Positions 28,538 to 45,577 of a stretch of DNA of 64,000 bases are shown here, one piece after another. The notes under the pieces are model-generated. The model saw only the letters and a program-made list of their open reading frames with translations, was not told the origin of the DNA and ran no database searches. Every line of letters starts with the position of its first letter. The first letter of the stretch is position 1. The stretch is from Candidatus Stercoripulliclostridium merdipullorum (GTDB lineage Bacteria > Bacillota > Clostridia > Christensenellales > DTU072), in assembly GCA_018713745.1 (NCBI GenBank), contig DVOH01000038.1, positions 31,938 through 95,937 of the forward strand, written 5' to 3'. The translations under genes and the position numbers were made by a program.

Positions 28538-28614
28538 CTTTTTTCAAGCGAAAAAAAAGAAAATCCGCCTCAAAAAATTTTTCCGAGTTGTCCAAAAATT
28601 TTCACACCTCTCCC

Positions 28615-28644
28615 TTGACATCGGCAAATTTCGTTTGCTATACT
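28615..28644 (+). promoter_or_regulatory. Near-consensus sigma-A promoter in front of the phage-derived cluster
   Basis: TTGACA (28615-28620), an 18 nt spacer, then TATACT (28639-28644). An A/T-rich region lies upstream. Confidence 0.6.
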
Positions 28645-28688
28645 GATATCGAATCAGAACAAATGTTCGTAAATTCAACGGAGGGTGT

Positions 28689-29192
28689 ATGTTAGACAGT
28701 ATCTTTGCAAAAACGGCGTTGTCCGTCAGACCCGAAATTTCGTTCGGTCTCAACAGCTATCGCAAACGGATCGAAACGTTGACGGGTTATCGGTACAACA
28801 CGGCGGGGGAGTGCGCCGAGCTGACGTTTGCAAAAATCGAAGCGATTCAACGGGCGATGGAGCGGCTTTCGGTTTTGTCCAATGCCGTCGACGCGGCGGT
28901 GGCGTTGTTGAACGATCGGCAGAGGCGGCTCATCGACTTAGTATATTTCAAGGGACAGCCGCGCGAATCCGTCATGGCGGAAATGAAGCTTTCTCCCACG
29001 CAATACAAGTATCTCAAAAATGTTTCGGTCAAAAAAATAGCAGGGTATCTCAATATTCTCGGGTTTGACAACGAGCGGTTTCTCGCGTATTTCAATGCCG
29101 AACCCGCGGTCGTCAGAAATTACGAAATTCTGTTGCTGCGCCGTGCGGCTTGTTGCTTCGGAGGGGATGAAGATGTCGCCCGATCTGTATAA
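28689..29192 (+). CDS. Sigma-70 region-4-like HTH regulator (phage late-gene activator type)
   Basis: The 167 aa segment RQRRLIDLVYFKGQPRESVMAEMKLSPTQYKYLKNVSVKKIAGYL resembles sigma region 4 / ArpU-RinA-like activators. A GGAGGG RBS lies upstream. Confidence 0.5.
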   Translation: MLDSIFAKTALSVRPEISFGLNSYRKRIETLTGYRYNTAGECAELTFAKIEAIQRAMERLSVLSNAVDAAVALLNDRQRRLIDLVYFKGQPRESVMAEMKLSPTQYKYLKNVSVKKIAGYLNILGFDNERFLAYFNAEPAVVRNYEILLLRRAACCFGGDEDVARSV

Positions 29193-29454
29193 AACTTTGC
29201 TCAAAAAAGCGGTTGGTTATTCCGTCAAAGAAACGGTGACCGAGTATGTCGTCGAAGAGGACGGAACGCGCCGCGCCGTGCGGGAAAAGACGCAAAAGAA
29301 ATATGTTCCGCCCGATATCGCCGCCTTAAAAACCTACCTCGAACTGGTCGAAAGCAAGCAGCGCGGAGAGTTGTCGGCAATGTCGGACGAAGCCCTCGAA
29401 GCAGAACGCCTTCGCTTGCTGAAAGAATTGGAAGCGATTTCTCACTCGTCGTAA
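29167..29454 (+). CDS. Small phage protein; terminase small subunit candidate
   Basis: About 95 aa. The motif KKYVPPDIAALKTYLE resembles the conserved ...PPD..A..F.L.N segment of several Firmicute-phage small terminases. The start could be 29167 or 29173, after a GGAGGGG RBS. Confidence 0.4.
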   Translation: MKMSPDLYKTLLKKAVGYSVKETVTEYVVEEDGTRRAVREKTQKKYVPPDIAALKTYLELVESKQRGELSAMSDEALEAERLRLLKELEAISHSS

Positions 29455-30149
29455 AAGCGTTTGCGTTTTCCTTTGGGGCGGAACAGCAAAAAGATAACCG
29501 CGACGGCAGGGACGGCAAGCCCGACGATGACAATGATGCGCAGATCTCTGCGGTCAAGTCCCGAAGGCGGGTCGGTATCTTCGACGGAGGGATCGGTCGG
29601 ATCGACGACTTCTTGCGGGATTTCTTCGGGTACGAATACGGGAAAATCGGTTTCGGGCATCGTCGTACGGTCGGCTTTGAGATATCCGTAATACTGATTG
29701 TACTGAACATAGTACCACACCGCGTCGGCGGCAGGATGTTCGCCGAGGAAGGTAAAAGGCTGCTCGACGGGGATTTCGACAACGTCGCTTGCCGAGAGAT
29801 CGGGGCGGCTTTTTAATTTGATGGCGGCAAACTCGGCGTATTCGGGCGCGATCGAAAGCTGACACATCGTTCCGGTTGCCGCGGTGTGATAGCCCGTGGT
29901 GCCGACAACGTTTTTGCTGACTTTTCCGCTGACGCCGTTGAACGTTACATAGTAGTACGCGTCGTCGAGATTGTTGATCCGCGCGTAATAGCTGTCGGGC
30001 AGCAAAAAGATTTTTTCGCCCATTTCGTTAAGCAGCCAGACTTCGCCGTCTACGACGATATGCGGCGTATCGGTTGCGGCAAATGCCGCATCGACGGGCT
30101 TCGACGCCAGCGTTGCGATTACAACGATAAGCAATAGGATCCGTTTCAT
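29442..30149 (-). CDS. Signal-peptide protein with two SH3b-like domains and a C-terminal TM anchor
   Basis: MKRILLLIVVIATLASKPVDAAFA signal peptide. Two SH3b-type segments end GVSGKVSKNVV and YYGYLKADRT. A Pro/Asp/Glu linker, the TM helix IIVIVGLAVPAVAVIFLLF and a basic tail follow. A GAGGT RBS is present, and TATAAT on the - strand corresponds to 30165-30170. Confidence 0.7.
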   Translation of the reverse strand: MKRILLLIVVIATLASKPVDAAFAATDTPHIVVDGEVWLLNEMGEKIFLLPDSYYARINNLDDAYYYVTFNGVSGKVSKNVVGTTGYHTAATGTMCQLSIAPEYAEFAAIKLKSRPDLSASDVVEIPVEQPFTFLGEHPAADAVWYYVQYNQYYGYLKADRTTMPETDFPVFVPEEIPQEVVDPTDPSVEDTDPPSGLDRRDLRIIVIVGLAVPAVAVIFLLFRPKGKRKRFYDE

Positions 30150-30241
30150 AGCTACCTCAACGGGATTATATCCTGTCGCAAAGGGAGTTAAAACGGAACC
30201 TTTGTAAAAAAATAAATAATTTCGTCAAAAGGAGAAGGGGT

Positions 30242-30565
30242 ATGGAGATCAGATCGGACGTATTCGATATTGCAAGGCGGCTGAAAGAGATCGATCCGAG
30301 GTATCGTTTGTATTATCGACCGGGCAAAGGATTTTCGCTCAAAACGGAAGGGGCGGCGGGTGAACTTCGATTGCCCTTCGATACGTTGGACGCAAGAACG
30401 GTCGAATATGTCAGAAAAACGCGGGTGGAGCGCAGCGACTGTTTGCGACGGGAGATCGAGGAGGACAATCGACGCGCGGAAGCCGCGGCGATGAAAGACG
30501 CCCTTCGATCGACCGAAGAGCAGATCGCGCTCAGCGTCGACAAGGTGAAACATGAACGCGCGTAA
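30242..30565 (+). CDS. Hypothetical protein immediately upstream of TerL (alternative TerS candidate)
   Basis: 107 aa with an AAGGAGAAGGGG RBS. It overlaps the TerL start by 14 nt and has a charged helical C-terminus. Confidence 0.5.
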   Translation: MEIRSDVFDIARRLKEIDPRYRLYYRPGKGFSLKTEGAAGELRLPFDTLDARTVEYVRKTRVERSDCLRREIEEDNRRAEAAAMKDALRSTEEQIALSVDKVKHERA

Positions 30566-31997
30566 ACAGCTGGAATCCGTCGTTGCCCGCTTGCGGGAGA
30601 TTGAAGCGGAACAAAAGATTCGGTATTCCAAAAACGCTATTTCAAGATACAATACCGGGGAAAAGGTGCATTTGAAACAAATGGAATTTCACCGTTCGCC
30701 CAAGCGCAACCGCTGGGTGTTCGGCGGCAACCGCAGCGGAAAAACCGAGTGCGGCGCCGTCGAAACGGTATGGCTTGCCCGCGGCATTCACCCATACCGC
30801 AAAAATCTGAAAGCGACGGATGGCTGGGTGGTGTCGGTCAGTTACGAAGTGCAGCGGGAGGTGGCGCAGGCAAAAATTCTCAATTATCTCAATCCCGACT
30901 GGATCGAAAAAATCGTCATGCACGAGGGGACGCGCGGATCGCCGTATTCGGGGATTATCGATACCATTTACGTTCGGTCGGCATTGGGCGGGATCTCCAA
31001 AATCGCCTTCAAATCGGCAGATCAGGGACGGGAAAAGTTTCAAGGGGCGTCGCTCGATTACGTCTGGTTTGACGAAGAGCCGCCCTTTGATATTTACGAG
31101 GAATGCCGTATGCGCGTACTGGACCGCAAGGGCGACATTTTCGGCACGATGACGCCGCTGAAGGGGTTGACTTGGGTGTATGACGAAATTTATCTCAATC
31201 CCGGCGGCAATCCCGAAATCTGGTATATCTTTATGGAATGGGCGGACAATCCTTATCTCGACCCCGAAGAAGTCGCGCTCTATGCCGCAACGCTTTCGTC
31301 CGAGTCGTCCGACAGCAGGCGTTACGGAAGATTCCGATCGGGCGAAGGGTTGGTATATCCCGAGTTCGATCCCTCGGTGCACGTGGTCGATCCCTTTCCC
31401 CTTCCGCCCGAGTGGCAAAGCAACATCAGCATCGACCCGGGGCTGAACAATCCGCTTTCCTGTCATTTTTATTACCAGGATTACGACGGCGTCGTTTACG
31501 TCGCCGAAGAGCATTACGAGCGGGGCAAACCCGTCGATTATCATGCCGAACGCATCAAGGAAATCGCCGATCGCCTGAACTGGCATCGCAATCACAACGG
31601 CATGATCGACGCCCTGATCGATTCTGCCGCCGCACAGCGCACCCTTGCCGCCGAAAAAAGCGTCGCCGAACTCTTTTACGATCACGGCATCGCCGCCGAT
31701 ACCAAGGTCAACAAAGATCTGTTCTCGGGCATCGCGACGGTCAGGGACTACTTTGTTGCGCGCCCGCCGCGCATCGTAATTTTCAGAAACTGCGTCAATC
31801 TGATCCGCGAACTCAAAGGGTACTGGTGGGGGCAAGGGGACGTTCCCCGCAAAAAAGACGATCACGCGCTGGACGAACTGCGCTATTATCTGATGACCAG
31901 ACCCCTCAACCGCGCCCCCGAGATCAAGGAGACGGGACGGGTATTGCGCCACAAAGAAAAATTGGCGCGCGCCCATCGACGCGATCAATACCGTTAA
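30552..31997 (+). CDS. Phage terminase large subunit
   Basis: Walker A FGGNRSGKTECG, Walker B DYVWFDEEP, the coupling motif TMTP, and the nuclease motifs ISIDPG and DDHALDELRY. Confidence 0.93.
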   Translation: MNARKQLESVVARLREIEAEQKIRYSKNAISRYNTGEKVHLKQMEFHRSPKRNRWVFGGNRSGKTECGAVETVWLARGIHPYRKNLKATDGWVVSVSYEVQREVAQAKILNYLNPDWIEKIVMHEGTRGSPYSGIIDTIYVRSALGGISKIAFKSADQGREKFQGASLDYVWFDEEPPFDIYEECRMRVLDRKGDIFGTMTPLKGLTWVYDEIYLNPGGNPEIWYIFMEWADNPYLDPEEVALYAATLSSESSDSRRYGRFRSGEGLVYPEFDPSVHVVDPFPLPPEWQSNISIDPGLNNPLSCHFYYQDYDGVVYVAEEHYERGKPVDYHAERIKEIADRLNWHRNHNGMIDALIDSAAAQRTLAAEKSVAELFYDHGIAADTKVNKDLFSGIATVRDYFVARPPRIVIFRNCVNLIRELKGYWWGQGDVPRKKDDHALDELRYYLMTRPLNRAPEIKETGRVLRHKEKLARAHRRDQYR

Positions 31998-32007
31998 AGG
32001 AGGAATT

Positions 32008-33852
32008 ATGTCAATCACAACGGTTTACGAGGAAGATCTCGTAAAAGAAGTAACCGCGGATTTTCAAAACCGCCGCGAGATGCGCCGCAACATCGAAAGC
32101 AAATGGTTGCTTAACATCAATTTTATGCTGGGCAATCAGTATTCGGGCATCTCTCCCGGGGGCGATATCGTCGACTACGGCAAGCAATATTATTGGCAGG
32201 AACGGGAGGTATTCAACCACATCGCGCCCCTGATCGAAACGCGACTTGCCAAGTTTGCCCGCGTCAACTGCTCGGTCAACGTTCGCCCCGCAACCGCGGA
32301 GGAAAACGACGTCCGCATCGCAAAACTTTCCACCAAGCTGATCGAAGCCACCCAGCGCGAAAACAACTTTATCCGTCTTTCGAACGAAGCCAACTATTGG
32401 GCGGAACTGACGGGGACGGTCTTTTACAAAATCGTCTGGGGCGGGGACAGCGAAGGGGTACGGCTTGCCGTCTGTCCCCCGTACGAAATTTATCCCGATA
32501 CTCTCGGCGCAAGCGGCTTGCAGGAGTGCCGATCGCTGATTCATGCCCGCGCCTATCCCGTCGAAACCATCCGCGAAATCTGGGGGAAGGAAGTCAAAGG
32601 CGGCTCCGTTTCGGTCATCAACATGGATACCTCCGAGGGGATCGGCGGCAACGGCTATACCGCAAGCAACTTCAAAGTCTTTTCGGACGAGAAAAAAGGC
32701 TATGCCGTCGTCATCGAACGCTACGAGCTTCCGACCGAACGCTATCCCGAAGGACGATTGGTTATCGTTGCGGGGGACGCTTTGTTGTACGAAGGTTCGT
32801 TGCCCTATGTCAACGGCGGGGGTGGCACGCGGACGTTCCCGTTTGTCCGTCAGGCGTCACTCGAGCAACCGGCAAGTTTTTACGGGATCAGTATCATCGA
32901 GCGTTTGATCCCCGTTCAGCGGGCGTACAATGCCGTCAAAAACCGTAAGCACGAGTTTCTCAACCGACTTGCCGCGGGCGTGATGATGGTCGAAGACGGT
33001 TCGATCGACGTCGACAGCCTGGAAGAGGAAGGGCTTTCTCCCGGCAAACTTCTGGTTTACCGCCGCGGCGCAACGCCGCCCGGGCTGATGAATGCGGGGA
33101 GCGTCCCGACAGAGTTCAGAGACGAAGAGGATCGCCTGCTTGCCGAATTCATCAATATTTCGGGAGCGTCCAACTTGAACGACGTCATGGTATCGTCGTC
33201 GGGACAGCTCAGCGGTTATGCGTTGTCGCTGATTATCGAACAGGATTACAGCCGTCTGAACGTGACGACCGAGAATATCCGCAATGCCGTGCGCGAAATG
33301 GCGGCGCAGATTCTCAGACTTTATCGGCAGTTTTCACCTTCGACGCGGATGATGCGCGTCAGCGGAGAAAACGGGGAGCTGGAAGTGGTTTCGTTCGAAG
33401 GCAGTCAGCTGACCTCGGACGATATCGTGACCGAAGCCGACGCCGAGATGGTCGAAACGCCCGCAACGCGAAAAACAATGGTGTTCGATCTGCTCAAATA
33501 CGGATTGCTGAACGACGCGACGGGTTCGATCAGCGAGTATAACAAGGTCAAAGTGCTCGAAATGCTGGGGTTCGGCAACTGGGAAAGCGCCAGAAGCCGC
33601 GACGAACTGCATCTGAAAAAAGCCGCCATCGAAAATGCCGAAATGGCGGAAGGCAAGGATCCCGGGATCGAGGAGTTTGACGATCACGACCTGCATGTGG
33701 GCGAACATATCGCGGCGCTGATTGCAGGACGGGACAGCTTGTCGGAAGAAGCCAAGACGCAACTCAATCGACATATCAAGCAGCACAAAGTTTACAAACG
33801 GCTGACAGCGGAAGCCGAAGCCGTCGGGACGGGTGTCCCGCGTCAAATTTAA
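32008..33852 (+). CDS. Phage portal protein (family not resolved)
   Basis: 614 aa, placed directly after TerL and before the scaffold and capsid genes. Its size and acidic helical C-terminal region are typical of portals. Confidence 0.8.
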   Translation: MSITTVYEEDLVKEVTADFQNRREMRRNIESKWLLNINFMLGNQYSGISPGGDIVDYGKQYYWQEREVFNHIAPLIETRLAKFARVNCSVNVRPATAEENDVRIAKLSTKLIEATQRENNFIRLSNEANYWAELTGTVFYKIVWGGDSEGVRLAVCPPYEIYPDTLGASGLQECRSLIHARAYPVETIREIWGKEVKGGSVSVINMDTSEGIGGNGYTASNFKVFSDEKKGYAVVIERYELPTERYPEGRLVIVAGDALLYEGSLPYVNGGGGTRTFPFVRQASLEQPASFYGISIIERLIPVQRAYNAVKNRKHEFLNRLAAGVMMVEDGSIDVDSLEEEGLSPGKLLVYRRGATPPGLMNAGSVPTEFRDEEDRLLAEFINISGASNLNDVMVSSSGQLSGYALSLIIEQDYSRLNVTTENIRNAVREMAAQILRLYRQFSPSTRMMRVSGENGELEVVSFEGSQLTSDDIVTEADAEMVETPATRKTMVFDLLKYGLLNDATGSISEYNKVKVLEMLGFGNWESARSRDELHLKKAAIENAEMAEGKDPGIEEFDDHDLHVGEHIAALIAGRDSLSEEAKTQLNRHIKQHKVYKRLTAEAEAVGTGVPRQI

Positions 33853-33864
33853 CGGGAGGGAAAC

Positions 33865-34365
33865 ATGGAAGAGATCAAAACGAAGGAACCAACGGCGGCG
33901 GAACTCGCCACAGGCGACAACTCTCAAGCCGAGTTCTACGGGAAATTCAAAAACAAAGAGGGGTTAATGGATGCTTACCGATCGCTGGAAGCCGAATTTA
34001 CGCGGCGCTCCCAGCGGCTGAAAGAGCTTGAAAGCGTCGAAAACCAACGTGCCGAAGCGGACAAATGGAGCCGCAAGGTGGACGAGTTGACGGCGAAATA
34101 CCCCGTCGCAGCCAATCTGACCGACGAAATCGCAGCGGTCCTCGAGAATCGCAAAGAGTTGCTGAGAGAGGAAAACTGTCTCGAAACGGCACTGCTGACG
34201 GTTCTGGCGGAAGGGTATGCGAAAAAACGGGACGAAGGCGGAGGGCGGACGCCGCCCAAGGTCAGCGTCAAAAAGGGCGAAATTCCGCTGGTTACCCCGG
34301 TACGGCCGACGTCGATCCGGGAAGCGGGCAAAATCGCCGAAAAAATCTTAAAATCCAACGGATAG
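33865..34365 (+). CDS. Capsid scaffolding protein
   Basis: 166 aa helical, charged protein between portal and MCP. The segment AYRSLEAEFTRRSQRLKELE is typical of scaffold proteins. Confidence 0.6.
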   Translation: MEEIKTKEPTAAELATGDNSQAEFYGKFKNKEGLMDAYRSLEAEFTRRSQRLKELESVENQRAEADKWSRKVDELTAKYPVAANLTDEIAAVLENRKELLREENCLETALLTVLAEGYAKKRDEGGGRTPPKVSVKKGEIPLVTPVRPTSIREAGKIAEKILKSNG

Positions 34366-34374
34366 GAGGAAAAC

Positions 34375-35547
34375 ATGGTCACTTTAAGCAGTGCGGACAA
34401 AGTCTTGAAAAACGTTTATCTCGGTGTGATCTGCGATCAGCTGAACAAACGGACCAATCCGTTCTACGCCGCCATTCAGCAGGGCAGCGAACTGGTCAAC
34501 GGAAAAAACGCCGTCGCGATCATCCGCAACGGAATCAACGGCGGGGTCGGCAGCGGAACGGAATCGGGAGCGTTGCCCGCAGCCAAGAACAGTACTTATT
34601 ACCAGCTGATTGCCGATCTCAAAAACATTTACGGCACGATCGAGATCAGCGACAAAGCCTTGCGCGCTTCGCAAAACTCCGCCAACGCGCTGGTTAATCT
34701 CCTCAATGACGAGATGGAAGCGTTGCTCGATTCGGCAAAATTCAATTTCGGCAGAATGCTTTGGCAAAACGGCTCGGGCGTTCTGACCAAGGTTGCGTCT
34801 TTGGAAGGACATTCGAGTACGTCCGAAATCCCCGTAGAGGACACGCGCAATCTGATGGAAGGGATGACGATCGACTTTGCCAACGGCAATATCGAGGTTT
34901 CGACGGGGCATACCGTCAGCGAGATTAACCGCGCCGACAAAATCATCCGGATCAGTCCCGCGCTCAGCGAACTGTCGGTGATTCAGGCGGGTACCAAGAT
35001 CTGCCTGCAAGGCTCCAACGAAAAAGAGATTTACGGATTGCCGTATCTCTTCGATCACACGATCTCGATGTTCTACAACACGCCGCGCAGTCTTGTGCCG
35101 GCAATTCTGCCCAAAACGACCACGGTCAGCGGCGAACTGTCTTCCGAAATGATGCAGACCGCCTTGGACGATCTCGAAATCGCTTCGGGCAACGAAACCG
35201 ATATGATTCTCGGTTCGCACGAAACGCGCAAAAAATACTTTGCCTATCTGCAGACAACCAGAACCAATATCGACTATATGAATCTCGACGGCGGCTTCAA
35301 AGCGCTGTCGTACAACGGGATTCCTTTTGTAGCCGATCGTTTCTGTCCCGACGGAGAAATGTACTTCGTCAACACCAAAGATTTCCGCCTCGCAAGTCTT
35401 TGCGACTGGCAGTGGATCGAAGGGGAAAACGGACGGATTCTGACGCAGATCGAAAAAACGCCTACTTACATGGCTACGTTGGTCAAATACGCCAACCTCA
35501 TCTGTGTCCGTCCCAAAGGTCAGGCTTGCATCAAGGGATTCAACTGA
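34375..35547 (+). CDS. Major capsid protein (HK97-fold expected)
   Basis: 390 aa following the scaffold gene. Composition and position are typical for an MCP, and a strong hairpin lies downstream. Confidence 0.75.
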   Translation: MVTLSSADKVLKNVYLGVICDQLNKRTNPFYAAIQQGSELVNGKNAVAIIRNGINGGVGSGTESGALPAAKNSTYYQLIADLKNIYGTIEISDKALRASQNSANALVNLLNDEMEALLDSAKFNFGRMLWQNGSGVLTKVASLEGHSSTSEIPVEDTRNLMEGMTIDFANGNIEVSTGHTVSEINRADKIIRISPALSELSVIQAGTKICLQGSNEKEIYGLPYLFDHTISMFYNTPRSLVPAILPKTTTVSGELSSEMMQTALDDLEIASGNETDMILGSHETRKKYFAYLQTTRTNIDYMNLDGGFKALSYNGIPFVADRFCPDGEMYFVNTKDFRLASLCDWQWIEGENGRILTQIEKTPTYMATLVKYANLICVRPKGQACIKGFN

Positions 35548-35559
35548 TCGCGATAACCC

Positions 35560-35584
35560 GGAGGGGCGGCTTTGCCGCCTCTCC
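35560..35584 (+). promoter_or_regulatory. Stable stem-loop immediately after the capsid gene (attenuator or mRNA stabiliser candidate)
   Basis: GGAGGGGCGGC-ttt-GCCGCCTCTCC, 11 bp with one G-T pair. No T-tract follows, and the RBS of the next gene starts 2 nt downstream. Confidence 0.4.
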
Positions 35585-35596
35585 GAAGGAGGGTGT

Positions 35597-36130
35597 ATGA
35601 AACTGAAAGACGCAATTTTGCGCTCGGTATATCTGCTCGGGATGGAAGAGGAAGTCGACCTTGCCGTCGACGGACTGAAGCGAAATCGCCTGATCGACTG
35701 CGGCAACAGCGTTTATGCCGAAATCGCAGGACAATACGTGCACCTCAAAACCGTCGAACCGATCGAATTCTCGGACGGACGGGCGTACTATACCGACTTC
35801 GGCTTTCCCGTCAGGGAAATCCTGTCCGTCAAGGACAACCGCGGCGAAGTTCCGTTTGAGATGACGCCGACTTATGTTGCGGCAAAGACGGCGGGCACGG
35901 TCGAAGTCCGCTATGTCTATCACCCTTTGCCGGCAGGATTGGAGGACGACTTGCTGCTCCCGCCGCAGTATACCGAGCATATTGTGGCGCAGGGGATTGC
36001 CGCGGAGTATTGCTACCGTACGGGACTGGTGGACGAAGCGATATTCTATCAGGCGCGGTTTGAGAGCGCGGTGACCAACATCGCCCGACGCATCCGTCCC
36101 GCCAATCTGCCTGCGAGGAAACTGCTATGA
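35597..36130 (+). CDS. Hypothetical virion protein (head-completion or adaptor candidate)
   Basis: 177 aa with a GGAGGG RBS. It is the first gene after the MCP, and the next gene overlaps its end by 4 nt (start 36127, stop 36130). Confidence 0.5.
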   Translation: MKLKDAILRSVYLLGMEEEVDLAVDGLKRNRLIDCGNSVYAEIAGQYVHLKTVEPIEFSDGRAYYTDFGFPVREILSVKDNRGEVPFEMTPTYVAAKTAGTVEVRYVYHPLPAGLEDDLLLPPQYTEHIVAQGIAAEYCYRTGLVDEAIFYQARFESAVTNIARRIRPANLPARKLL

Positions 36131-37620
36131 GGACGCCGAGAGTAGAAAAACTGCCTACATTAAGTCGCCTTAACTACAAAATTTCACGGTTCAACAACAT
36201 TGACGGGCGTGAAGCGGGCGGGGAAATTCCGCTCAATATATGTAGCTATGGCTACAATATAAAGTTCAGGTCGGGTATGTTGTGCGGCGGCATGGGGATT
36301 GATCAACCCGTCGTTACGCTGGAGGACGGAAGCCAACGCGAGATCCCCAATCTTTCCAAGTTTGCGCGGGCGATGCACCGCATCGCGCTGTATCGCCGCA
36401 AGGATCCCGTCACCGGGGCGCGCGACGACAGACTGCTTGCGTTCAGCGACGTCGAAAACAACGTCTACGAGACAAAGGTGGTCCGCGGCGACTATACCGT
36501 CAACGAGGCGATCAAGATCGAAGGCTATGACGCCGAGTGCATCAATTACTATACGGGCGGCAAAGACTGTCTGCTGGTATTTCTGCCGTACGGGGGGATG
36601 TATCTTTACGACGGCGATACCGCCGTTCTGCACGATACGCCGCCTCTGACTTCGGTCTGCATGCATTACGACCGCGTCTACGGCGTCGGCGCCGACGGCA
36701 CGTCCCTTCATTTCAGTGCGCCGCTCGAGCCGCACAATTTCGCCCCGGAATCGGGGGGCGGTACCATCCGGTTTATGGACGAGGGCGGAAAAGTCGAAAA
36801 GGTGGTATCTTTCAAAGACTATCTGCTTATTTTCCGCGAGCACGCCGTGCATCGGATGCGCGCTTATACCGATCCGTCCGAGTATACCGTGACGAAGATT
36901 TTCGAGAGCGACACCGTCATTCACGCCAATACCGTCGCGATTACCGACGACGTGATGATGTTTGTGATCGGGACGCATCTGATGATCTTCGACGGGTACA
37001 CCGTCAGGCGATACGCCGAAGGTCTTTCGGCACTGATCGATACCGTCGATCACGGAAGTGCCGTGTTTTTCGAAAACAAATATTATCTCGGCTGTCGCAT
37101 CAAAACGCGGGGAGAAATCGTGGGCGACGAAAAAATTCCCAGCGTCGACATCAACAACGCCTTGCTCGAAGTCGATCCGTATTCCGACGACGTTGCGGTT
37201 CTGCGCGGCACCGACGTGCGTCGTATGACGCCGGTTGTGCTCGGCAAACTGTCGTTTTTGTTGATTCTGTTCAACAATTACCGCCAGGCGTATTGCGCGC
37301 GCTTGTCGGATTCGGGCAGGATCATGGGTAATGTGCTTGAAAAACTTTGGATCAGTCCCACAAGCGATCTCGGCGAGCGGGGACGCGTCAAATCGCTCAA
37401 ACGCGTATACATTACGGCGGAAGGACCTTTGACGCTCGGGATCGGACAGGGGGGCGAATTGCAGACGCGCACGGTTTACGCTTCGCCGTCCGAGCAGGTG
37501 CTACCCTTCCGAACGAGGGGGAACGATCTTTATATCCGGATCGAGACGGAGGGGGACGGTTTCCGTGTATACGGGATGACGCTGGTGCTCGATCTGATCA
37601 GGAGGTACTATGCAAATTGA
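36127..37620 (+). CDS. Hypothetical beta-rich virion protein (tail hub/nozzle candidate)
   Basis: 497 aa with recurring blade-like hydrophobic-strand segments (LLVFLPYGGMYLYDG, RVYGVGADGTSLHFS, YLLIFREHAVHRM, MMFVIGTHLMIFDG, KYYLGCRIK). Confidence 0.5.
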   Translation: MRTPRVEKLPTLSRLNYKISRFNNIDGREAGGEIPLNICSYGYNIKFRSGMLCGGMGIDQPVVTLEDGSQREIPNLSKFARAMHRIALYRRKDPVTGARDDRLLAFSDVENNVYETKVVRGDYTVNEAIKIEGYDAECINYYTGGKDCLLVFLPYGGMYLYDGDTAVLHDTPPLTSVCMHYDRVYGVGADGTSLHFSAPLEPHNFAPESGGGTIRFMDEGGKVEKVVSFKDYLLIFREHAVHRMRAYTDPSEYTVTKIFESDTVIHANTVAITDDVMMFVIGTHLMIFDGYTVRRYAEGLSALIDTVDHGSAVFFENKYYLGCRIKTRGEIVGDEKIPSVDINNALLEVDPYSDDVAVLRGTDVRRMTPVVLGKLSFLLILFNNYRQAYCARLSDSGRIMGNVLEKLWISPTSDLGERGRVKSLKRVYITAEGPLTLGIGQGGELQTRTVYASPSEQVLPFRTRGNDLYIRIETEGDGFRVYGMTLVLDLIRRYYAN

Positions 37621-37732
37621 AACGCTTGCGACGTTACTGAATGAAGTAATCGTCAAACTGATGGCGCTGTCGGTCAAGACGGACGCTATCCTCAAAAAGC
37701 TCCAATCGACTTCGGAACACACGGAGGTGTAA
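37610..37732 (+). CDS. Small 40-codon ORF, absent from the ORF track
   Basis: An ATG 4 nt after a GGAGG (37601-37605), encoding MQIETLATLLNEVIVKLMALSVKTDAILKKLQSTSEHTEV. It fills the gap between two genes and overlaps the upstream gene by 11 nt. Confidence 0.3.
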   Translation: MQIETLATLLNEVIVKLMALSVKTDAILKKLQSTSEHTEV

Positions 37733-37733
37733 G

Positions 37734-38780
37734 ATGGCAAACTGGATCGAAAAAGCCGAAGAACGGGTGGAGAGCACGATTCAGAAACTGAAGGACGCCC
37801 TCAACAAAAAGAACACCCCATCGGCATCCGAGACCGTCGACGCCGATCTGAAAAAGAAGGGGGAATCGCTGGTTCAGGCACTCGAAACGATGGAGCGGGA
37901 ATACGAAAAATCCTTGTTTCCGGATTTTGCGGCAGAGGTTCCGGAAAGCACGGGAATGGAGCAGATCGAGTATACGCCGCCGACGGACGAGGAACTGAAG
38001 AAGCAGGCGGAAACGGCGTTGCTGCCCGATTATACCGAAGGCGTTGCCAAAGCGGAAGAAACGTACTTGGAGACGTCGGGCGACATTGCGGCAGATCGGG
38101 CGGAAGCGACGGAAGAGGAGCGAATCCGCTATGACGATCTGTCGGCATTGCTGGACGATATGCGTTTGCAACATCAGTCCGATATGATCCGGCAGGGGTT
38201 GGTGCACTCGACGATCAACACCGAAGGGCAGGCGGCGACCGAGCGATACGGGGAGCAGGAGCGGCAGGCGATCGAAAACCGCTATAAGGCGACCTATGAC
38301 GCGCTGGATCAGAAAGCGGAAGAGGCGCGGCTGAAATACGACAACGCCATCCGCTCGTACGATCTGAAGTACGCTGCCGATCTCGAAAAGAGAATCGCCG
38401 ATCTGACGGCGGAGCGGGACAAGCAGACCGAAAAGATCAACGCATACAATCAAAAAGTAGCCGAAGCCGAGCTGAAATATCAGGAAGAGCGGCAGAAAAA
38501 ACTTGCCGAACTCGAGCAGAAAGCCTGGGAGGACTACCGCAAAAACAACGCGCAGCGGCTGGCAGAAGCCGAAGCGGGGCGGTATACGCCCGAGGAAGCC
38601 GCCGACCGCGACAAGCGGCTGGAAGAAGCGAGGTCGTTTTTCGGAGAAATGAGTGCGGAAGACGCACTGAAACTGTTTTCGGCAAACAATGCGTCGCTGT
38701 CCGACCTCTTGGGGGTTGAACGGTATCAGACGCTGTTCGGCGAACTGTTTGTCCGCGCGATTGCGGAAGGGAGGCAATGA
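37734..38780 (+). CDS. Acidic coiled-coil protein (needle, plug or internal protein candidate)
   Basis: 348 aa, very rich in Glu/Ala/Lys/Arg, with long heptad-like stretches (EKINAYNQKVAEAELKYQEERQKKLAELEQKAWEDY). It has no TM segment. Confidence 0.6.
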   Translation: MANWIEKAEERVESTIQKLKDALNKKNTPSASETVDADLKKKGESLVQALETMEREYEKSLFPDFAAEVPESTGMEQIEYTPPTDEELKKQAETALLPDYTEGVAKAEETYLETSGDIAADRAEATEEERIRYDDLSALLDDMRLQHQSDMIRQGLVHSTINTEGQAATERYGEQERQAIENRYKATYDALDQKAEEARLKYDNAIRSYDLKYAADLEKRIADLTAERDKQTEKINAYNQKVAEAELKYQEERQKKLAELEQKAWEDYRKNNAQRLAEAEAGRYTPEEAADRDKRLEEARSFFGEMSAEDALKLFSANNASLSDLLGVERYQTLFGELFVRAIAEGRQ

Positions 38781-39028
38781 GAATGAAAACGCAACTGATT
38801 CCGCTGACGGTCAAAACGCAATGTGACAACGGCAGGTGTCGCAACCGTGCCGAATATATAGTCGCACGCGAAGATACGCCCGTGTATATGCAACTGCACT
38901 TGTGCGGGGAGTGTCTCAAAACGATCGCGGCGCTGGCGAAGGAGACGCAGGCAAAATCATCGCCGCGGTCGAACAAAACAAAAAAAGGAGAGGAAAATGT
39001 GGGAGCAGATTCTGGAAGCCGCCGCTAA
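38777..39028 (+). CDS. Small Cys-rich (zinc-ribbon-like) protein
   Basis: 83 aa with C-x4-C ... C-x2-C (CDNGRC ... CGEC). It has an ATGA overlap with the upstream gene, and its 3' end overlaps the holin gene by 32 nt. Confidence 0.4.
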   Translation: MRMKTQLIPLTVKTQCDNGRCRNRAEYIVAREDTPVYMQLHLCGECLKTIAALAKETQAKSSPRSNKTKKGEENVGADSGSRR

Positions 39029-39248
39029 CAGCGGCTTGTGGGCAATGTTGTTTGTGACACTGTTTGTCATACAGCTGAAAGACAGCAAGGAGCGAGAAGG
39101 AAAGTATCAGGAAACCATCGCTTCGCTGGGCGACAAGCTGAAAGTCGTTGCCGAAATCAAGGCAACCGTCGATACCATTCGCGAAAAAATCGAAAGCGGT
39201 ACGGCGCTGAAGTCCTCGGTGACGACACAGACTGAAAAATCCGATTAA
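38997..39248 (+). CDS. BhlA/UviB-family holin-like protein
   Basis: 83 aa with a single N-terminal TM helix (LWAMLFVTLFVIQL), then KDSKEREGKYQETI and a coiled C-terminus, matching the BhlA/UviB pattern. An AAGGAGAGG RBS lies upstream. Confidence 0.65.
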   Translation: MWEQILEAAANSGLWAMLFVTLFVIQLKDSKEREGKYQETIASLGDKLKVVAEIKATVDTIREKIESGTALKSSVTTQTEKSD

Positions 39249-39255
39249 ACGGAAA

Positions 39256-39282
39256 AACGGGCGGAAATTCCGCCCGTTTTTT
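39256..39282 (+). terminator. Rho-independent terminator closing the phage-derived cluster
   Basis: CGGGCGG-aaatt-CCGCCCG followed by TTTTTT. Confidence 0.8.
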
Positions 39283-39369
39283 GCTTTCGCGCGTGTATCG
39301 TGCGCCCGTACAGACGAGGTTAAGCGACGGTTTGACGATTTTGTTGTCGAAATTTTCCGCCGAAATCGC

Positions 39370-39398
39370 TTGCATTTTTCGGATACGAGGCGTATGAT
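39370..39398 (+). promoter_or_regulatory. Promoter of the atp operon
   Basis: TTGCAT (39370-39375), a 17 nt spacer, then TATGAT (39393-39398). Confidence 0.5.
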
Positions 39399-39474
39399 AG
39401 GACACATTAACGGAGAGTATAATAGGATTCCTATTGTAGTAATCCCGTTCTCCCCAAGTGCAGGAGTTCAGACT

Positions 39475-40209
39475 ATGCCTTCGATGACAGCAGCAAATTT
39501 TATCGACAGCCTGCGGGACGCCTTCCGGGACGCCTTCGGCGGCGGTATGGGCGAGTCCGTTCAGGAGGCGCTCAATCCCGAACCCGTCAATTTGTTCGGA
39601 CTGGAAGTCAATCCTTCGCTGATTGCCGCCTTTTTCGGGACGATCGTCATTCTGCTGGCTTGCGTCGTCATTCGGTTGTTCGTCATTCCGCGCTTCCGCA
39701 ATCAGCCCAAAGGACTTCAGCTTCTCCTCGAAGGCATTGTCGGATACTTTGACAAAACCGCTTCCGCAACCCATCGCCACGCAAGTTTCGTCGGTCCTTA
39801 TATTGCGGCGGCTTCTATTTTTATCTGCATCACCACCCTCGCCGAATTGGTCGGCATCCGTCCCGCTTTTGCAAGCATCAATACCTGCCTTGCGTTCGGT
39901 TTGTCAACGTTTTTCGTCATCAATTTCTGCGGTCTGAGAGAAAAAGGTCTTTGGGGCAGAGCCAAACGCTATCTCAACAATCCCATCAATATCATCACCG
40001 ATCTTGCCGTTCCGCTTTCCCTTTCCTTCCGCCTGTTCGGCGCGATTATGAGCGGCTTTATCATTATGGAACTCGTTTACAGCGTTCTCTTTCTCAGTTT
40101 CGTCGTGCCCGCCATCGTTTCGGTCGTCACGACGCTGTTCCACGCGCTGATTCAGTCCTTCCTGTTTGCCACATTGTCCACGCTGTTTATCGGCGAGGCG
40201 ATCGAATAA
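39475..40209 (+). CDS. atpB: F0F1 ATP synthase subunit a
   Basis: The start at ATG 39475 follows an AGGAG RBS. The polytopic protein carries the conserved LSLSFRLFGAIMSG (essential Arg) region. Confidence 0.9.
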   Translation: MPSMTAANFIDSLRDAFRDAFGGGMGESVQEALNPEPVNLFGLEVNPSLIAAFFGTIVILLACVVIRLFVIPRFRNQPKGLQLLLEGIVGYFDKTASATHRHASFVGPYIAAASIFICITTLAELVGIRPAFASINTCLAFGLSTFFVINFCGLREKGLWGRAKRYLNNPINIITDLAVPLSLSFRLFGAIMSGFIIMELVYSVLFLSFVVPAIVSVVTTLFHALIQSFLFATLSTLFIGEAIE

Positions 40210-40236
40210 AAATTTGTTAATTTTGTGAGGTGTCTT

Positions 40237-40476
40237 ATGAATCTGATGTTTCTCGCTTCCGATCTCGCCGCGCTCGGCGCAGCACTTGCCATCGGTCTGA
40301 CCGGTCTCGGCGCCGCGCTTGCCATGGGATTTTCCATCAGCAAAGCCATGGAAGGGATTGCCCGTCAGCCCGAAGCCGACAACAAAATCCGTTCCACTCT
40401 GATCCTCGGTCTTGCCTTCTGCGAAACCCTTGCGATTTACGGATTGCTGGTTGCAATTCTGCTGCTGACGATGTAG
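40237..40476 (+). CDS. atpE: F0F1 ATP synthase subunit c
   Basis: A hairpin of two TM helices with a Gly-rich helix 1, the ARQPEA loop and the carboxylate in [10 protein letters not shown]. Confidence 0.93.
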
Positions 40477-40487
40477 GGTAGGGCGTT

Positions 40488-41159
40488 ATGGCGGTATGGA
40501 TGACGGCGGCGGAAATGCCGCTGGGGCTGAATCCGATCGAAATCCTCCTGCATATTTTCAATTTTGCGGTGCTGATTATCGGCGTTCGGTTTTTGCTGTA
40601 TAAGCCCATCAAAAAATTTATGGACAAGCGCGCGGCGGGGTATGCCGAAGCCGAAGAAGAGCGCAAAAAACTCGACGAAGCGGCAAATGCCGACCGTGAA
40701 GCGGCGCGCAAAACTTTGGAAGAGGCGGAAAGAAGCGCGGTAAAAATCGAAGAAGAAGCCAACGCCGCGGCGATGGTGGAAGCCGACGCGATCATGGAGA
40801 ATGCCCGCAAAGAAGCGCGTGAAATGATCGAAAAGGCCGAAGCCGATCTTGCCGTACGCGAAGAACGGCAGCGCATTGCGATGAGCCGCGAAGTAACCGC
40901 GCTTGCGCTGACGATGTCGACCAAGATTCTCGAACGCGAAGTCAAAGCCGAAGACAACGACGCCGTAATCGGACCTTTGATCGAGCAATTCCGCACCGTG
41001 CAGTCGACGGCGCCCGCGCGCACGAGAAAGCGCGATCCCAAAGCGGAAGTGACGGGACTTGCCGTCGAGATTGCCGAAAAGATTCTGGAGCGCGAAGTCA
41101 GACCCGAGGACAACGATTCGGCGATCGACGAGACGATTAGAGAATTCAAGAAGAAATAA
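40488..41159 (+). CDS. atpF: F0F1 ATP synthase subunit b, with a duplicated C-terminal segment
   Basis: N-terminal TM helix plus the KPIKKFMDKR motif and a long charged helix. At 223 aa it is unusually long because the C-terminal repeat of about 38 aa occurs twice. Start codon choice (40488, 40500 or 40515) is uncertain. Confidence 0.85.
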   Translation: MAVWMTAAEMPLGLNPIEILLHIFNFAVLIIGVRFLLYKPIKKFMDKRAAGYAEAEEERKKLDEAANADREAARKTLEEAERSAVKIEEEANAAAMVEADAIMENARKEAREMIEKAEADLAVREERQRIAMSREVTALALTMSTKILEREVKAEDNDAVIGPLIEQFRTVQSTAPARTRKRDPKAEVTGLAVEIAEKILEREVRPEDNDSAIDETIREFKKK

Positions 41160-41161
41160 GT

Positions 41162-42916
41162 ATGCGCGAAATTATTGTCAAGTCGGCGATTGCGCTGACA
41201 GAAGAGCAAAAAGCCAAGCTGGAAGCGGGGCTCCGTGCGGCGGACCCGCAGTCCGAACTGCGCTTCCGTTATCAGATCGACCGGATTGTCGGCGGGATCG
41301 TCGTGGTTGACGGCGAGGACGTTTACGACGCATCGATTGCGGCGGAACTCCGCAAGCTGAAAAAGAGCAGCGACCGTCTGGTGCATCACGGCAAAGACGG
41401 CAAGGGGATTGCCGTACAGGACATTCCGGCTTTGCTGAAGAGCAAGCTCGACGAAATGATCGATCACAAGCACGATTACGAGGTGTGCGGCAAGGTAATT
41501 GCGGCGGCGGACGGCGTCATTCGCATCGAAGGATTGCAGGATTGCCGTTACGGCGAATTGCTGTTGGTCGGCACGCACGGATTCGCGCTGGCGATGAACC
41601 TCGAAGAAACCGAAGTCGGCGCCATTCTGCTCAGCGAAATCGATACGGCGGAATACGGCGATTTCGTTTATACGACGGGCAAAATCGTTGAAGTTCCCGT
41701 CGGAGACGAGCTGTTGGGCAGGGTGGTCAATCCGCTGGGACAGCCGATGGACGGCGGCGACGCCATCAAAGGCGAAACGACGCGTTGCGTCGAAAGTCCC
41801 GCTCCCGCGATTATCGACCGTCAAAAAGTTTCGGAACCGTTGCAGACGGGGATTCTTGCCGTCGATGCGATGATTCCGATCGGCAAAGGTCAGCGCGAAC
41901 TGATCATCGGCGACCGTCAGACGGGCAAAACTTCTCTTGCCATCGACACCATTCTCAATCAGAAGGGGAAGGACGTTCTTTGCATTTACGTTGCCGTCGG
42001 GCAGCGCGCTTCGAGCGTCGGCAAAATCGTGCGTACGCTTAAAGCGCACGGCGCAATGGATTACACGACCATCGTTTTGTCGACTGCCGACGACTCCGCT
42101 CCTTTGCAATATCTGGCTCCCTATACCGGCGCCGCGATCGGCGAACATTGGATGGAAGAGGGAAAGGACGTTCTGATCGTCTATGACGACCTCTCCAAAC
42201 ATGCCGTGGCATATCGCGCGATTTCCCTGTTGCTTAAGCGCCCCGCGGGCAGAGAAGCATATCCGGGCGACGTCTTTTATATTCATTCCCGGCTTCTCGA
42301 GCGTGCGGCAAGGATGGCGGACGAAAAGGGCGGCGGTTCGATGACCGCGCTGCCGATCATCGAAACGCTTGCGGGCGACATCTCGGCGTATATCCCGACC
42401 AACGTGATCAGCATTACGGACGGGCAGATTTATCTCGAGAGCGAATTGTTCCATTCGGGCGTTCGTCCCGCAATCAACGTGGGACTTTCGGTCAGCCGTG
42501 TCGGCGGGCAGGCGCAGATCCCGTATATCCGCAAGATCAGCTCGGCGTTACGCCTGAAAATCGCCCATTACCGCGAGCTTGCCGTATTTTCGCAATTCGG
42601 TTCCTCTCTCGGCGACGCGACCAAGGAAATCCTGGACGACGGCGCCAAAACCGTCGAGGCGCTCAAACAGGGCGAAGGACAGCCGATGTCGGCGTTTCGC
42701 GAAGCGGTTTCGCTGTACGCGACCGTCAAAGGGCATCTTAAGAGCATTCCCGTATCCAAAGTCAATGCCTTTCTCGAAGGATTGTATCGGTATATTTCGA
42801 CGACGATGCCCGAGTTGCAGCGTTCGCTGAAAGACCGCGGAACCTTCGATCATCGCGAGGAAGCCCGCCTCGAAACCGCCGTTTCGGCATTTGCAAAACA
42901 GTTCGGGGCACAATAA
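41162..42916 (+). CDS. atpA: F0F1 ATP synthase alpha subunit carrying an N-terminal delta (OSCP) C-terminal-domain fusion
   Basis: Residues 1 to about 72 match the delta C-terminal domain pattern (LTEEQKAKL...IDRIVGGIVVVDGEDVYDASIAAELRKLKK). From about residue 88 onward the protein is canonical alpha (GDRQTGKT Walker A and onward). No separate atpH gene lies between atpF and atpA. Confidence 0.93.
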   Translation: MREIIVKSAIALTEEQKAKLEAGLRAADPQSELRFRYQIDRIVGGIVVVDGEDVYDASIAAELRKLKKSSDRLVHHGKDGKGIAVQDIPALLKSKLDEMIDHKHDYEVCGKVIAAADGVIRIEGLQDCRYGELLLVGTHGFALAMNLEETEVGAILLSEIDTAEYGDFVYTTGKIVEVPVGDELLGRVVNPLGQPMDGGDAIKGETTRCVESPAPAIIDRQKVSEPLQTGILAVDAMIPIGKGQRELIIGDRQTGKTSLAIDTILNQKGKDVLCIYVAVGQRASSVGKIVRTLKAHGAMDYTTIVLSTADDSAPLQYLAPYTGAAIGEHWMEEGKDVLIVYDDLSKHAVAYRAISLLLKRPAGREAYPGDVFYIHSRLLERAARMADEKGGGSMTALPIIETLAGDISAYIPTNVISITDGQIYLESELFHSGVRPAINVGLSVSRVGGQAQIPYIRKISSALRLKIAHYRELAVFSQFGSSLGDATKEILDDGAKTVEALKQGEGQPMSAFREAVSLYATVKGHLKSIPVSKVNAFLEGLYRYISTTMPELQRSLKDRGTFDHREEARLETAVSAFAKQFGAQ

Positions 42917-42918
42917 CG

Positions 42919-43782
42919 ATGCAGTCACTTCACGACATCAAAAAGCGGATTCAGAGCATCGGCGAAACAGGGCAGATCACCAAGGCGATGCAACTGATCA
43001 GCGTTGCCAAAATGCGGAAGGCAAACGAAAAATACGAGCTGAACGCCCGGTATTTCGATCGCGTCCGCGCGACGCTCGAAGATATTCTTGCCCATACGGG
43101 GACACTCGAGCATCCTTATCTCGTTCCGCGTAAAACCGATCGCGCCGCATACGTCGTTATCGCTTCGGACACGGGCATGGCGGGAGAATACAATCATCGC
43201 GTTCTCAATTTCGCGCTGGAAGAAGTCCGAAAAGGCAATCCCGAAAAAATCTATACCATCGGATTTATGGCGCGGGATTTTTTCGAGCGGAACGGGTTGC
43301 CGCCCGACGCGCAGTTTCTGTACAGCGCGCAGGATCCGACGTTGTCGGACGCAAGACGGATCATGATGTATCTCGTCGATCTGTTCGACAGCAAAAAAGT
43401 CGACCGCGTATATATCATTTATACCCGCCACGAAAAGACGGGCAACCGCGCCGCAAAACTCAAATTATTGCCCCTCGAAGCGAGCGACTTCGACGACATC
43501 CGACCCGTCCGGCATTCGCAGGAAACATGGGACTTCGAACCCGATCCCAAGACGGTTTTCGATCTTTTGGTTCCGCAATGCGTTCTGGGGTTGGTGTACA
43601 GCACGTTGACGCAGTCGGTTCGGTGCGAACATGCCGAACGGCAGGCGGCAATGCAGCACGCTTCGGACAATGCGTCCGAGATGCTTAACAAACTCGAACT
43701 CGAATTCCACCGCGCAAGACAAGCGGCGATTACGACCGAAATCGCAGAAATCAGTGCGGCGGGAATCAATCGGGAGGATTAG
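42919..43782 (+). CDS. atpG: F0F1 ATP synthase gamma subunit
   Basis: The N-terminus IKKRIQSIGETGQITKAMQLISVAKMRKA and the C-terminus RQAAITTEIAEI. Confidence 0.93.
   Translation: MQSLHDIKKRIQSIGETGQITKAMQLISVAKMRKANEKYELNARYFDRVRATLEDILAHTGTLEHPYLVPRKTDRAAYVVIASDTGMAGEYNHRVLNFALEEVRKGNPEKIYTIGFMARDFFERNGLPPDAQFLYSAQDPTLSDARRIMMYLVDLFDSKKVDRVYIIYTRHEKTGNRAAKLKLLPLEASDFDDIRPVRHSQETWDFEPDPKTVFDLLVPQCVLGLVYSTLTQSVRCEHAERQAAMQHASDNASEMLNKLELEFHRARQAAITTEIAEISAAGINRED

Positions 43783-45577
<1,795 letters not shown>

Follow-up and report, generated by a model that had tools for sequence, protein, structure and literature searches.

The numbers of peripheral stalks and of a subunits in an ATP synthase set its ion-to-ATP ratio, a basic bioenergetic parameter, and to our knowledge stalk number in F-type enzymes was, until 2025, thought to be fixed at one. 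An engineered FoF1 from Bacillus PS3, termed deltaΔN-alpha, departs from this (Ueno et al., Nat Commun 2025, PMC12229609; PDB 9JC1). Its delta residues 2–104 were deleted and residues 105–178 fused to alpha, the argument being that the delta N-domain, lying on the pseudo-threefold axis, restricts the enzyme to one stalk. The product bore as many as three b2-a stalks, with a mean of about two and many particles having one only, and a mean of about two a subunits; H+/ATP rose from 3.0 to 5.8, and half the proton-motive force (pmf) was enough for ATP to be made. The extra stalks and a subunits were recruited spontaneously, with the operon unchanged. The subject of the present text is a natural gene of the same plan, encoding an ATP synthase alpha subunit that opens with delta's C-terminal domain. 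It lies in a window (the whole stretch of DNA analysed) of 64,000 nucleotides from the chicken-gut Clostridia member Candidatus Stercoripulliclostridium merdipullorum (GenBank assembly GCA_018713745.1, contig DVOH01000038.1, positions 31,938 to 95,937 of the forward strand), and positions below are those of the window.

Natural relatives of the construct have been noted before. Alongside the engineered enzyme, natural deltaΔN-alpha fusions were pointed out in Acidaminococcus fermentans and in UniProt entries G4Q3K6 and A0A1I2C5T3 (PMC12229609). A phylogenomic survey (Mulkidjanian et al. 2026, bioRxiv 10.64898/2026.10.01.756066) reports delta-alpha fusions, and also short deltas in candidate phyla radiation (CPR) bacteria, Verrucomicrobiota, Chloroflexota and Bacillota. 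A different solution is that of the Chloroflexus aurantiacus F1Fo, which has two peripheral stalks (PNAS 2025, PMC12002316; PDB 9ITJ series).

The fused protein

A sequence-only reading of the window had proposed that delta is reduced here to its C-terminal domain and joined through a short linker to the N-terminus of alpha in one 584-residue frame. Profile searches bear this out, with a match to Pfam OSCP (PF00213) followed by one to NCBIfam TIGR00962 (atpA) in a single open reading frame (ORF). Searched with PF00213, the first 103 residues give a match of residues 3–68 to profile positions 104–170 of 172 (41.5 bits against a cut-off of 22.3, E 2e-10), and the whole protein one of residues 4–68 to positions 105–170 of 172 at 37.1 bits. 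The delta N-terminal helical bundle, which occupies roughly positions 1–100 of the profile, is absent: the protein starts 3 residues before the match does. TIGR00962 takes up residues 85–581 (positions 4–501 of 503; 710.5 bits against a cut-off of 484.45). The canonical alpha does follow, as had been proposed, although it starts slightly earlier, at about residues 81–85, than the residue near 88 originally given.

An AlphaFold2 model, built from 35 fused homologues and with a mean predicted local distance difference test score (pLDDT) of 73, folds residues 2–75 confidently (pLDDT 76–84) as beta-alpha-beta-beta-beta-alpha, the same four strands and two helices as in the delta C-domain described elsewhere (PMC12002316). 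Residues 76–84 are disordered in the model, with pLDDT below 50 for residues 76–81, in keeping with the proposed linker; residues 85–101 are helical and the beta-barrel begins at residue 107. The helix aligns with PS3 alpha residues 3–20 and with the same helix of the engineered chain 9jc1_I. Among homologues the linker is variable in both length and sequence, and when sister operons that have separate genes are aligned with the fused proteins, their gene boundary falls exactly at it. The delta part is, to judge from these matches, the C-terminal alpha/beta domain that is predicted to bind b.

Does the organism keep another delta? The reading had found no free atpH and no separate delta gene between atpF, which ends at 41159, and the alpha core, and both points hold. 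The fused ORF itself begins with the ATG at 41162, no separate gene intervening, and a PF00213 search of the 96%-complete genome at E ≤ 10 returned no second OSCP match, this fusion being the only one. A delta N-domain hidden elsewhere in the source genome was considered and rejected on the same search, which a very divergent copy could escape.

Is the junction genuine?

An indel or a lost stop that joined a short atpH to atpA would mimic such a gene, and a metagenome-assembled genome (MAG) in 60 contigs is not the place to dismiss artefacts lightly. The fused frame recurs, however, in a 99%-identical partial copy (P0001) from a separate ENA assembly, which spans the delta-alpha junction, and in dozens of homologues, 37–75% identical, from NCBI, ENA, JGI and Logan assemblies. 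One of these (P0081) is on a 2.85-Mb contig of a metagenome assembly and has the same operon order. Proteins of 553–620 residues with PF00213 and the alpha domains make up dozens of clusters at 90% identity, the linker aligns in frame across homologues and on the alpha tree the fused sequences form a coherent clade. Given this many fused homologues from independent assemblies, and purifying selection on the delta part (see below), a sequencing or assembly artefact is very unlikely indeed.

For the window against its relatives synonymous divergence (dS) is saturated, and the ratio of non-synonymous to synonymous rates (dN/dS) is usable only for one pair of relatives (loci L036 and L039) and, less reliably, for the window against L039. 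In the first pair it is 0.084 for the delta C-terminal domain, 0.051 for the alpha core and about 0.6 for the linker. The delta part is under purifying selection and the linker evolves much faster. This bears on the thought that the N-terminal extension is a decaying, functionless remnant of delta in an F-ATPase on its way to being lost in favour of a V/A-type enzyme. Such an enzyme is encoded in the genome, and 108 of the 251 genomes surveyed from the order (see below) have no OSCP match. A decaying domain would hardly show a dN/dS near that of the alpha core beside a linker that evolves freely, though; all seven genes of the operon are intact with strong family scores, and the delta-binding module of b is conserved, even duplicated. 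Decay is scarcely more credible than artefact.

A subtler possibility is that the two parts are made together and then part company, or are never joined at all. Internal initiation, or cleavage in the linker, would give a free delta C-terminal domain of about 8 kDa and an ordinary alpha, as in the sister clades, which work with separate short delta genes (74 aa) bounded exactly where the linker lies; and the linker is disordered and exposed in the model. Against separation, the sole standard start codons in the linker region of the window (GTG at codon 74, TTG at 91 and ATG at 99) have weak Shine–Dalgarno (SD) pairing, none stronger than −4.0 kcal/mol. Conservation of these positions is lacking across 15 fused homologues, and in three of them the stretch is devoid of ATG, GTG and TTG alike. 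The fused state is kept across the whole clade. The window linker has no usable SD-paired ATG, GTG or TTG. An internal translation start yielding plain alpha is unsupported, no conserved SD-backed start being found in the window or in the 15 homologues. The frame is open throughout, and the original statement that neither a stop nor a plausible internal start divides the two parts stands. Separation by either route we consider improbable. The fusion is, on this comparative evidence, a genuine and selected gene architecture.

Stalk number

What would such a chain do? In the mechanism proposed here delta has lost its N-terminal helical bundle, the part on the alpha3beta3 threefold axis that holds the enzyme to one stalk. 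Its C-domain, which binds the C-termini of the b dimer, would be tethered by a flexible linker of about 9–14 residues to the alpha N-terminal helix. Each alpha would then bear a b2-docking module of its own, three per F1, with the covalent link taking over the anchoring role usual for the delta N-terminal domain, and the whole chain would presumably be incorporated into the enzyme. With the axis unblocked two or three b2-a stalks, and as many a subunits, would be possible by analogy with 9JC1, and with extra stalks H+/ATP should go up and ATP synthesis should call for a lower pmf. The sequence-only reading had gone part of this way in proposing that the covalent link replaces the contact of the delta N-terminal bundle. 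That agrees with why the engineered PS3 enzyme was designed and with how it behaved (PMC12229609), but the alpha N-terminal helix (residues 85–101) is retained, adjoining the delta domain, and so the replacement is not a simple one. A consequence beyond that reading is that there would be three docking domains per alpha3beta3 and that the domain which limits the enzyme to one stalk is gone; the fusion, by doing both, would remove the one-stalk limit.

That the fusion is a real, functional, built-in stalk anchor is probable. That two or three stalks are the usual complement of the native enzyme, with a matching number of a subunits, as the engineered analogue might lead one to expect, is a tentative proposal and more doubtful than not. 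Reaching further, to the enzyme of the window bacterium and much of its order as a natural multi-stalk F-ATPase with two or three proton channels on one c-ring, is to state what at present seems unlikely. Were it so, the H+/ATP ratio would reach two to three times c/3, and a very low pmf, for instance one supplied by Rnf, could serve to make ATP, or a gradient could be built at it. Should the natural deltaΔN-alpha enzymes be multi-stalk, energy conservation could be open to a large group of gut anaerobes at membrane potentials below those that a textbook synthase needs. Loss of the delta N-domain may, on this multi-stalk reading, have come first and be ancestral in the order, followed by several independent rounds of stabilisation through fusion with alpha, or with b and alpha together.

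An intact fusion is also compatible with a single stalk, and this is a substantial possibility, if a little short of an even one. One delta C-terminal domain would bind b2-a while the other two were idle or served assembly or regulation, and H+/ATP would be ordinary; only the claim about stoichiometry is at stake. In the operon the a and b genes are each single and stand in the usual order, many of the engineered particles were themselves one-stalked with an average of about two (PMC12229609), the free delta C-terminal domain genes of sister lineages show that one delta per alpha is not needed, and a second rotary ATPase is present. The engineered fusion nevertheless gained its extra stalks and a subunits spontaneously from an unchanged operon (PMC12229609), and the b-delta-alpha triple fusions described below force a stalk arm onto each alpha. 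In addition the cell has no choice but to make all three delta C-terminal domains, and purifying selection acts on the domain.

Further considerations weigh against the multi-stalk reading. The a and b genes are single, and the operon gives no visible sign that their expression is raised. Since a V/A-type ATPase (A- and B-like subunits) is also encoded in the source genome, the F-type enzyme need not be the main synthase and may run as a pump. The genome has an Rnf complex (RnfD, E 1.4e-105) as a candidate low-energy ion pump, which would suit a multi-stalk enzyme, but the V/A-type ATPase weakens this physiological argument, and stalk number is in any case unconstrained by the physiology that can be inferred. 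Proteolysis in the exposed linker is possible too.

The b subunit is itself atypical. It is unusually long, at 223 residues, because its C-terminal delta-binding module is duplicated in tandem (nucleotides 40887–40991 and 41043–41147), b residues 134–168 and 186–220 being 54% identical (E 2e-12). The same duplication is found in one other locus (L027, genome G016, with a b of 228 aa), whereas in the closest relatives, L036 and L039, b has 188–192 residues and no second module. As part of the multi-stalk reading, the duplicated module may be a further adaptation of the stalk.

Distribution in the order and class

To what extent is a delta without its N-terminal domain a peculiarity of one bacterium? 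The survey covered 251 genomes at least 90% complete, the window's own included, from the Christensenellales-like order, 143 of which gave an OSCP match. Among the 150 matches listed there are 62 free-standing delta C-terminal domain genes (71–136 aa), 61 alpha fusions, 20 full-length deltas, five longer frames of the b-delta-alpha type (733–796 aa) and two unclassed frames of 184 and 231 aa. Relatives share the fusion, as the 61 and the dozens of homologues already mentioned show, and a delta without its N-terminal domain is the norm in the order among these matches. In nine of the genomes with a full-length delta there is a short or fused copy as well, suggestive of a second operon.

On a tree of the alpha core the window belongs to a clade whose sampled members are all fused, and fused forms turn up at three or more separate points among the free-short ones. 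The close relatives are labelled Candidatus Stercoripulliclostridium and uncultured Clostridia, from gut samples, and one more distant fused homologue is labelled as a Christensenella sp. MAG. In a class-wide sample of 300 genomes the ordinary full-length delta dominates and fusions are sporadic. A phmmer search with the first 103 residues against a representative library of 1.84 billion proteins, too insensitive to serve as a census, gave 34 matches, mostly free delta C-terminal domains of 71–98 aa and full-length deltas. A fusion in Verrucomicrobia/Lentisphaerae, suggested by tblastn (L040, L041 and L043), was rejected on inspection of the ORFs; delta there has a gene of its own, of about 130 aa, immediately upstream of alpha.

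A bolder arrangement is the triple fusion of b, the delta C-terminal domain and alpha in one chain. At L019 (genome G008, contig C48) it is a 728-aa ORF on the reverse strand with a separate 144-aa b' gene upstream, and the architecture as a whole (PF00430, PF00213 and the alpha domains; 733–756 aa) makes up 268 clusters from many assemblies. An AlphaFold2 model of such a chain has a transmembrane helix, long stalk helices, the delta C-terminal domain (pLDDT 80–94) and then alpha. Triple fusions, as modelled, place a membrane-anchored stalk arm on every alpha.

Other variants deserve mention in their own right. Free-standing deltas of 71–136 aa, consisting of the C-domain alone, are found in 61 genomes of the order (for example at L013, L015, L017, L010, L012 and L018), and how they attach to F1 with neither an N-domain nor a covalent link is a puzzle. 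At L011 (G029:C1:389527-390051) an ORF of 184 aa between b and alpha has two matches resembling the OSCP C-terminal part in one frame, and appears to be a free-standing tandem double of the domain. An OSCP C-terminal match inside a 231-aa open frame elsewhere (G174:C2:63551-63778) could be a fusion of b with the delta C-terminal domain of the N-ATPase kind within the same order. In the class-wide sample, frames of 668–691 aa in seven genomes (G310, G520, G422, G372, G317, G457 and G285) match OSCP from profile positions 10–35 to 171–172; these appear to be full-length delta-alpha fusions, with the N-domain kept, in other Clostridia families. Even a single genus can be divided: L008 (G019) has a full-length delta operon with an alpha of a different alpha lineage and L025 (G004) is of the fused type, a contrast that suggests operon replacement or acquisition.

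The operon and its genome

The fusion is part of the organism's sole F-type ATPase operon (Table 1), whose order is a, c, b, delta-CTD::alpha (CTD, C-terminal domain), gamma, beta, epsilon. It sits between b and gamma, the canonical F-type order, and starts 2 nt past the stop codon of atpF. For atpE the ATG start has good SD pairing at −9.4 kcal/mol, against +1.0 for an alternative upstream GTG at 40225. Judged by eye against known motifs, the glycine motif of the c subunit reads G-x-G-x-A-x-A-x-G, and Met and Leu stand at the equivalents of the Ilyobacter tartaricus Na+ ligands Q32 and T67, a picture that would point to H+ coupling and, for the ring, to a size above c10.

Table 1. Parts of the fused gene, the atp operon around it and two further ion-translocating systems of the same genome (window coordinates unless a contig is named)
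Feature	Position	Strand	Remarks
atpB, Fo subunit a	39370..40209	+	PF00119 ATP-synt_A E 1.5e-26, residues 93-274; start codon uncertain
atpE, c subunit	40237..40476	+	79 aa from ATG; PF00137 E 3.3e-21
atpF, b subunit	40488..41159	+	223 aa; PF00430, TIGR01144; TAA stop 41157-41159
Fused delta-CTD::alpha ORF	41162..42916	+	584 aa; ATG 41162, one frame, no internal stop
Delta (OSCP) C-terminal domain	41162..41386	+	Residues 1-75; PF00213, TIGR01145 (positions 103-170)
Flexible linker HGKDGKGIA	41387..41413	+	Residues 76-84; SSDRLVH just ahead, at end of last delta helix
Retained alpha N-terminal helix VQDIPALLKSKLDEMID	41414..41464	+	Residues 85-101; helix in AlphaFold2 model
Alpha core (beta-barrel, nucleotide-binding and C-terminal domains) and stop codon	41465..42916	+	PF00006 E 9e-81, PF00306 E 5.5e-33
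atpG, gamma	42919..43782	+	PF00231 E 1.5e-76
atpD, beta	43783..45183	+	PF00006 and PF02874
atpC, epsilon	45176..45577	+	133 aa; PF02823 E 1.3e-21; 8-nt overlap with atpD
V/A-type ATPase and Rnf	G000 contig C11: 28203-33529 and 44212-45174		About 11 kb apart

The genome is of 1.73 Mb, and no H+-pyrophosphatase was found in it. Directly upstream of the operon, at about 28600–39300 of the window, is a phage-like cluster of structural genes.

Comparison with known systems

The likeness to the engineered PS3 chain is close. In a phmmer search residues 7–581 align in one stretch with residues 9–576 of 9jc1_I (580 aa, annotated ‘ATP synthase delta subunit, ATP synthase subunit alpha’), and with the AlphaFold2 model as Foldseek query the three fused chains of 9jc1 take ranks 1, 2 and 4, aligned over 577–581 columns against some 470–510 for plain alphas. 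The two chains are colinear and of nearly the same length, and no structure matches the model better than 9JC1. The delta cut falls at the same place (PS3 residue 105; OSCP profile position 104–105 here), with the alpha N-terminal helix kept in both. The gene-level features of deltaΔN-alpha are found in the window: the delta N-domain is absent, the C-domain is joined by a short linker to the alpha N-terminus and there is no full-length delta. The differences are that the present chain is natural and distant in sequence, with a linker about 5 residues longer and not of Gly-Ser type; that the epsilon C-terminal region, deleted in the construct, is present; and that the b module is duplicated. 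The figures of up to three stalks and an H+/ATP of 5.8 are measurements on the construct.

The Chloroflexus enzyme is a natural F-type case whose altered delta makes room for more than a single stalk and a single a subunit, and its delta C-domain, of the fold shared with the window protein, connects b to F1. Its delta is, however, a separate protein of 157 aa with a shortened N-domain that dimerises and so fixes the stalks at two, whereas in the window the delta part has 75 residues, no N-domain and a covalent bond to alpha. The dimerising four-helix N-domain by which the two-stalk type is recognised (PMC12002316) is absent here, which places the window protein outside that type. Fusion of delta to an adjoining stator subunit is a likeness of another kind.

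In N-ATPases b (TIGR03321) has a delta-like C-terminal extension in which only the C-terminal part of delta survives, and a mycobacterial b-delta fusion is also known. TIGR03321 positions 178–245 match window residues 3–70 (E 6e-4). The partner in those fusions is b, present in one or two copies per enzyme, and here it is alpha, present in three. N-ATPase identity was considered for the window operon and rejected, with scores of 577.4 against a cut-off of 750.5 for alpha (TIGR03324) and 31.3 against 224.7 for b (TIGR03321), and a canonical F-type gene order.

Likened by their descriptions, the fusions of Acidaminococcus and of the phylogenomic survey share with the window a delta C-terminal segment ahead of alpha and the absence of a separate delta. 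They differ in lineage, that considered here being a chicken-gut Clostridia family near Candidatus Stercoripulliclostridium in a Christensenellales-like order. The available portions of PMC12229609 and of bioRxiv 10.64898/2026.10.01.756066 do not describe the pattern of this order, with an N-domain-less delta as the norm and free, fused and triple-fused forms alternating. The gene architecture itself is already in print (2025–2026), and the window adds another example of it and no new principle. What it does add is the picture across a lineage: an order in which an N-domain-less delta is by turns free, fused to alpha and fused to b and alpha offers natural comparisons against which to test the multi-stalk idea.

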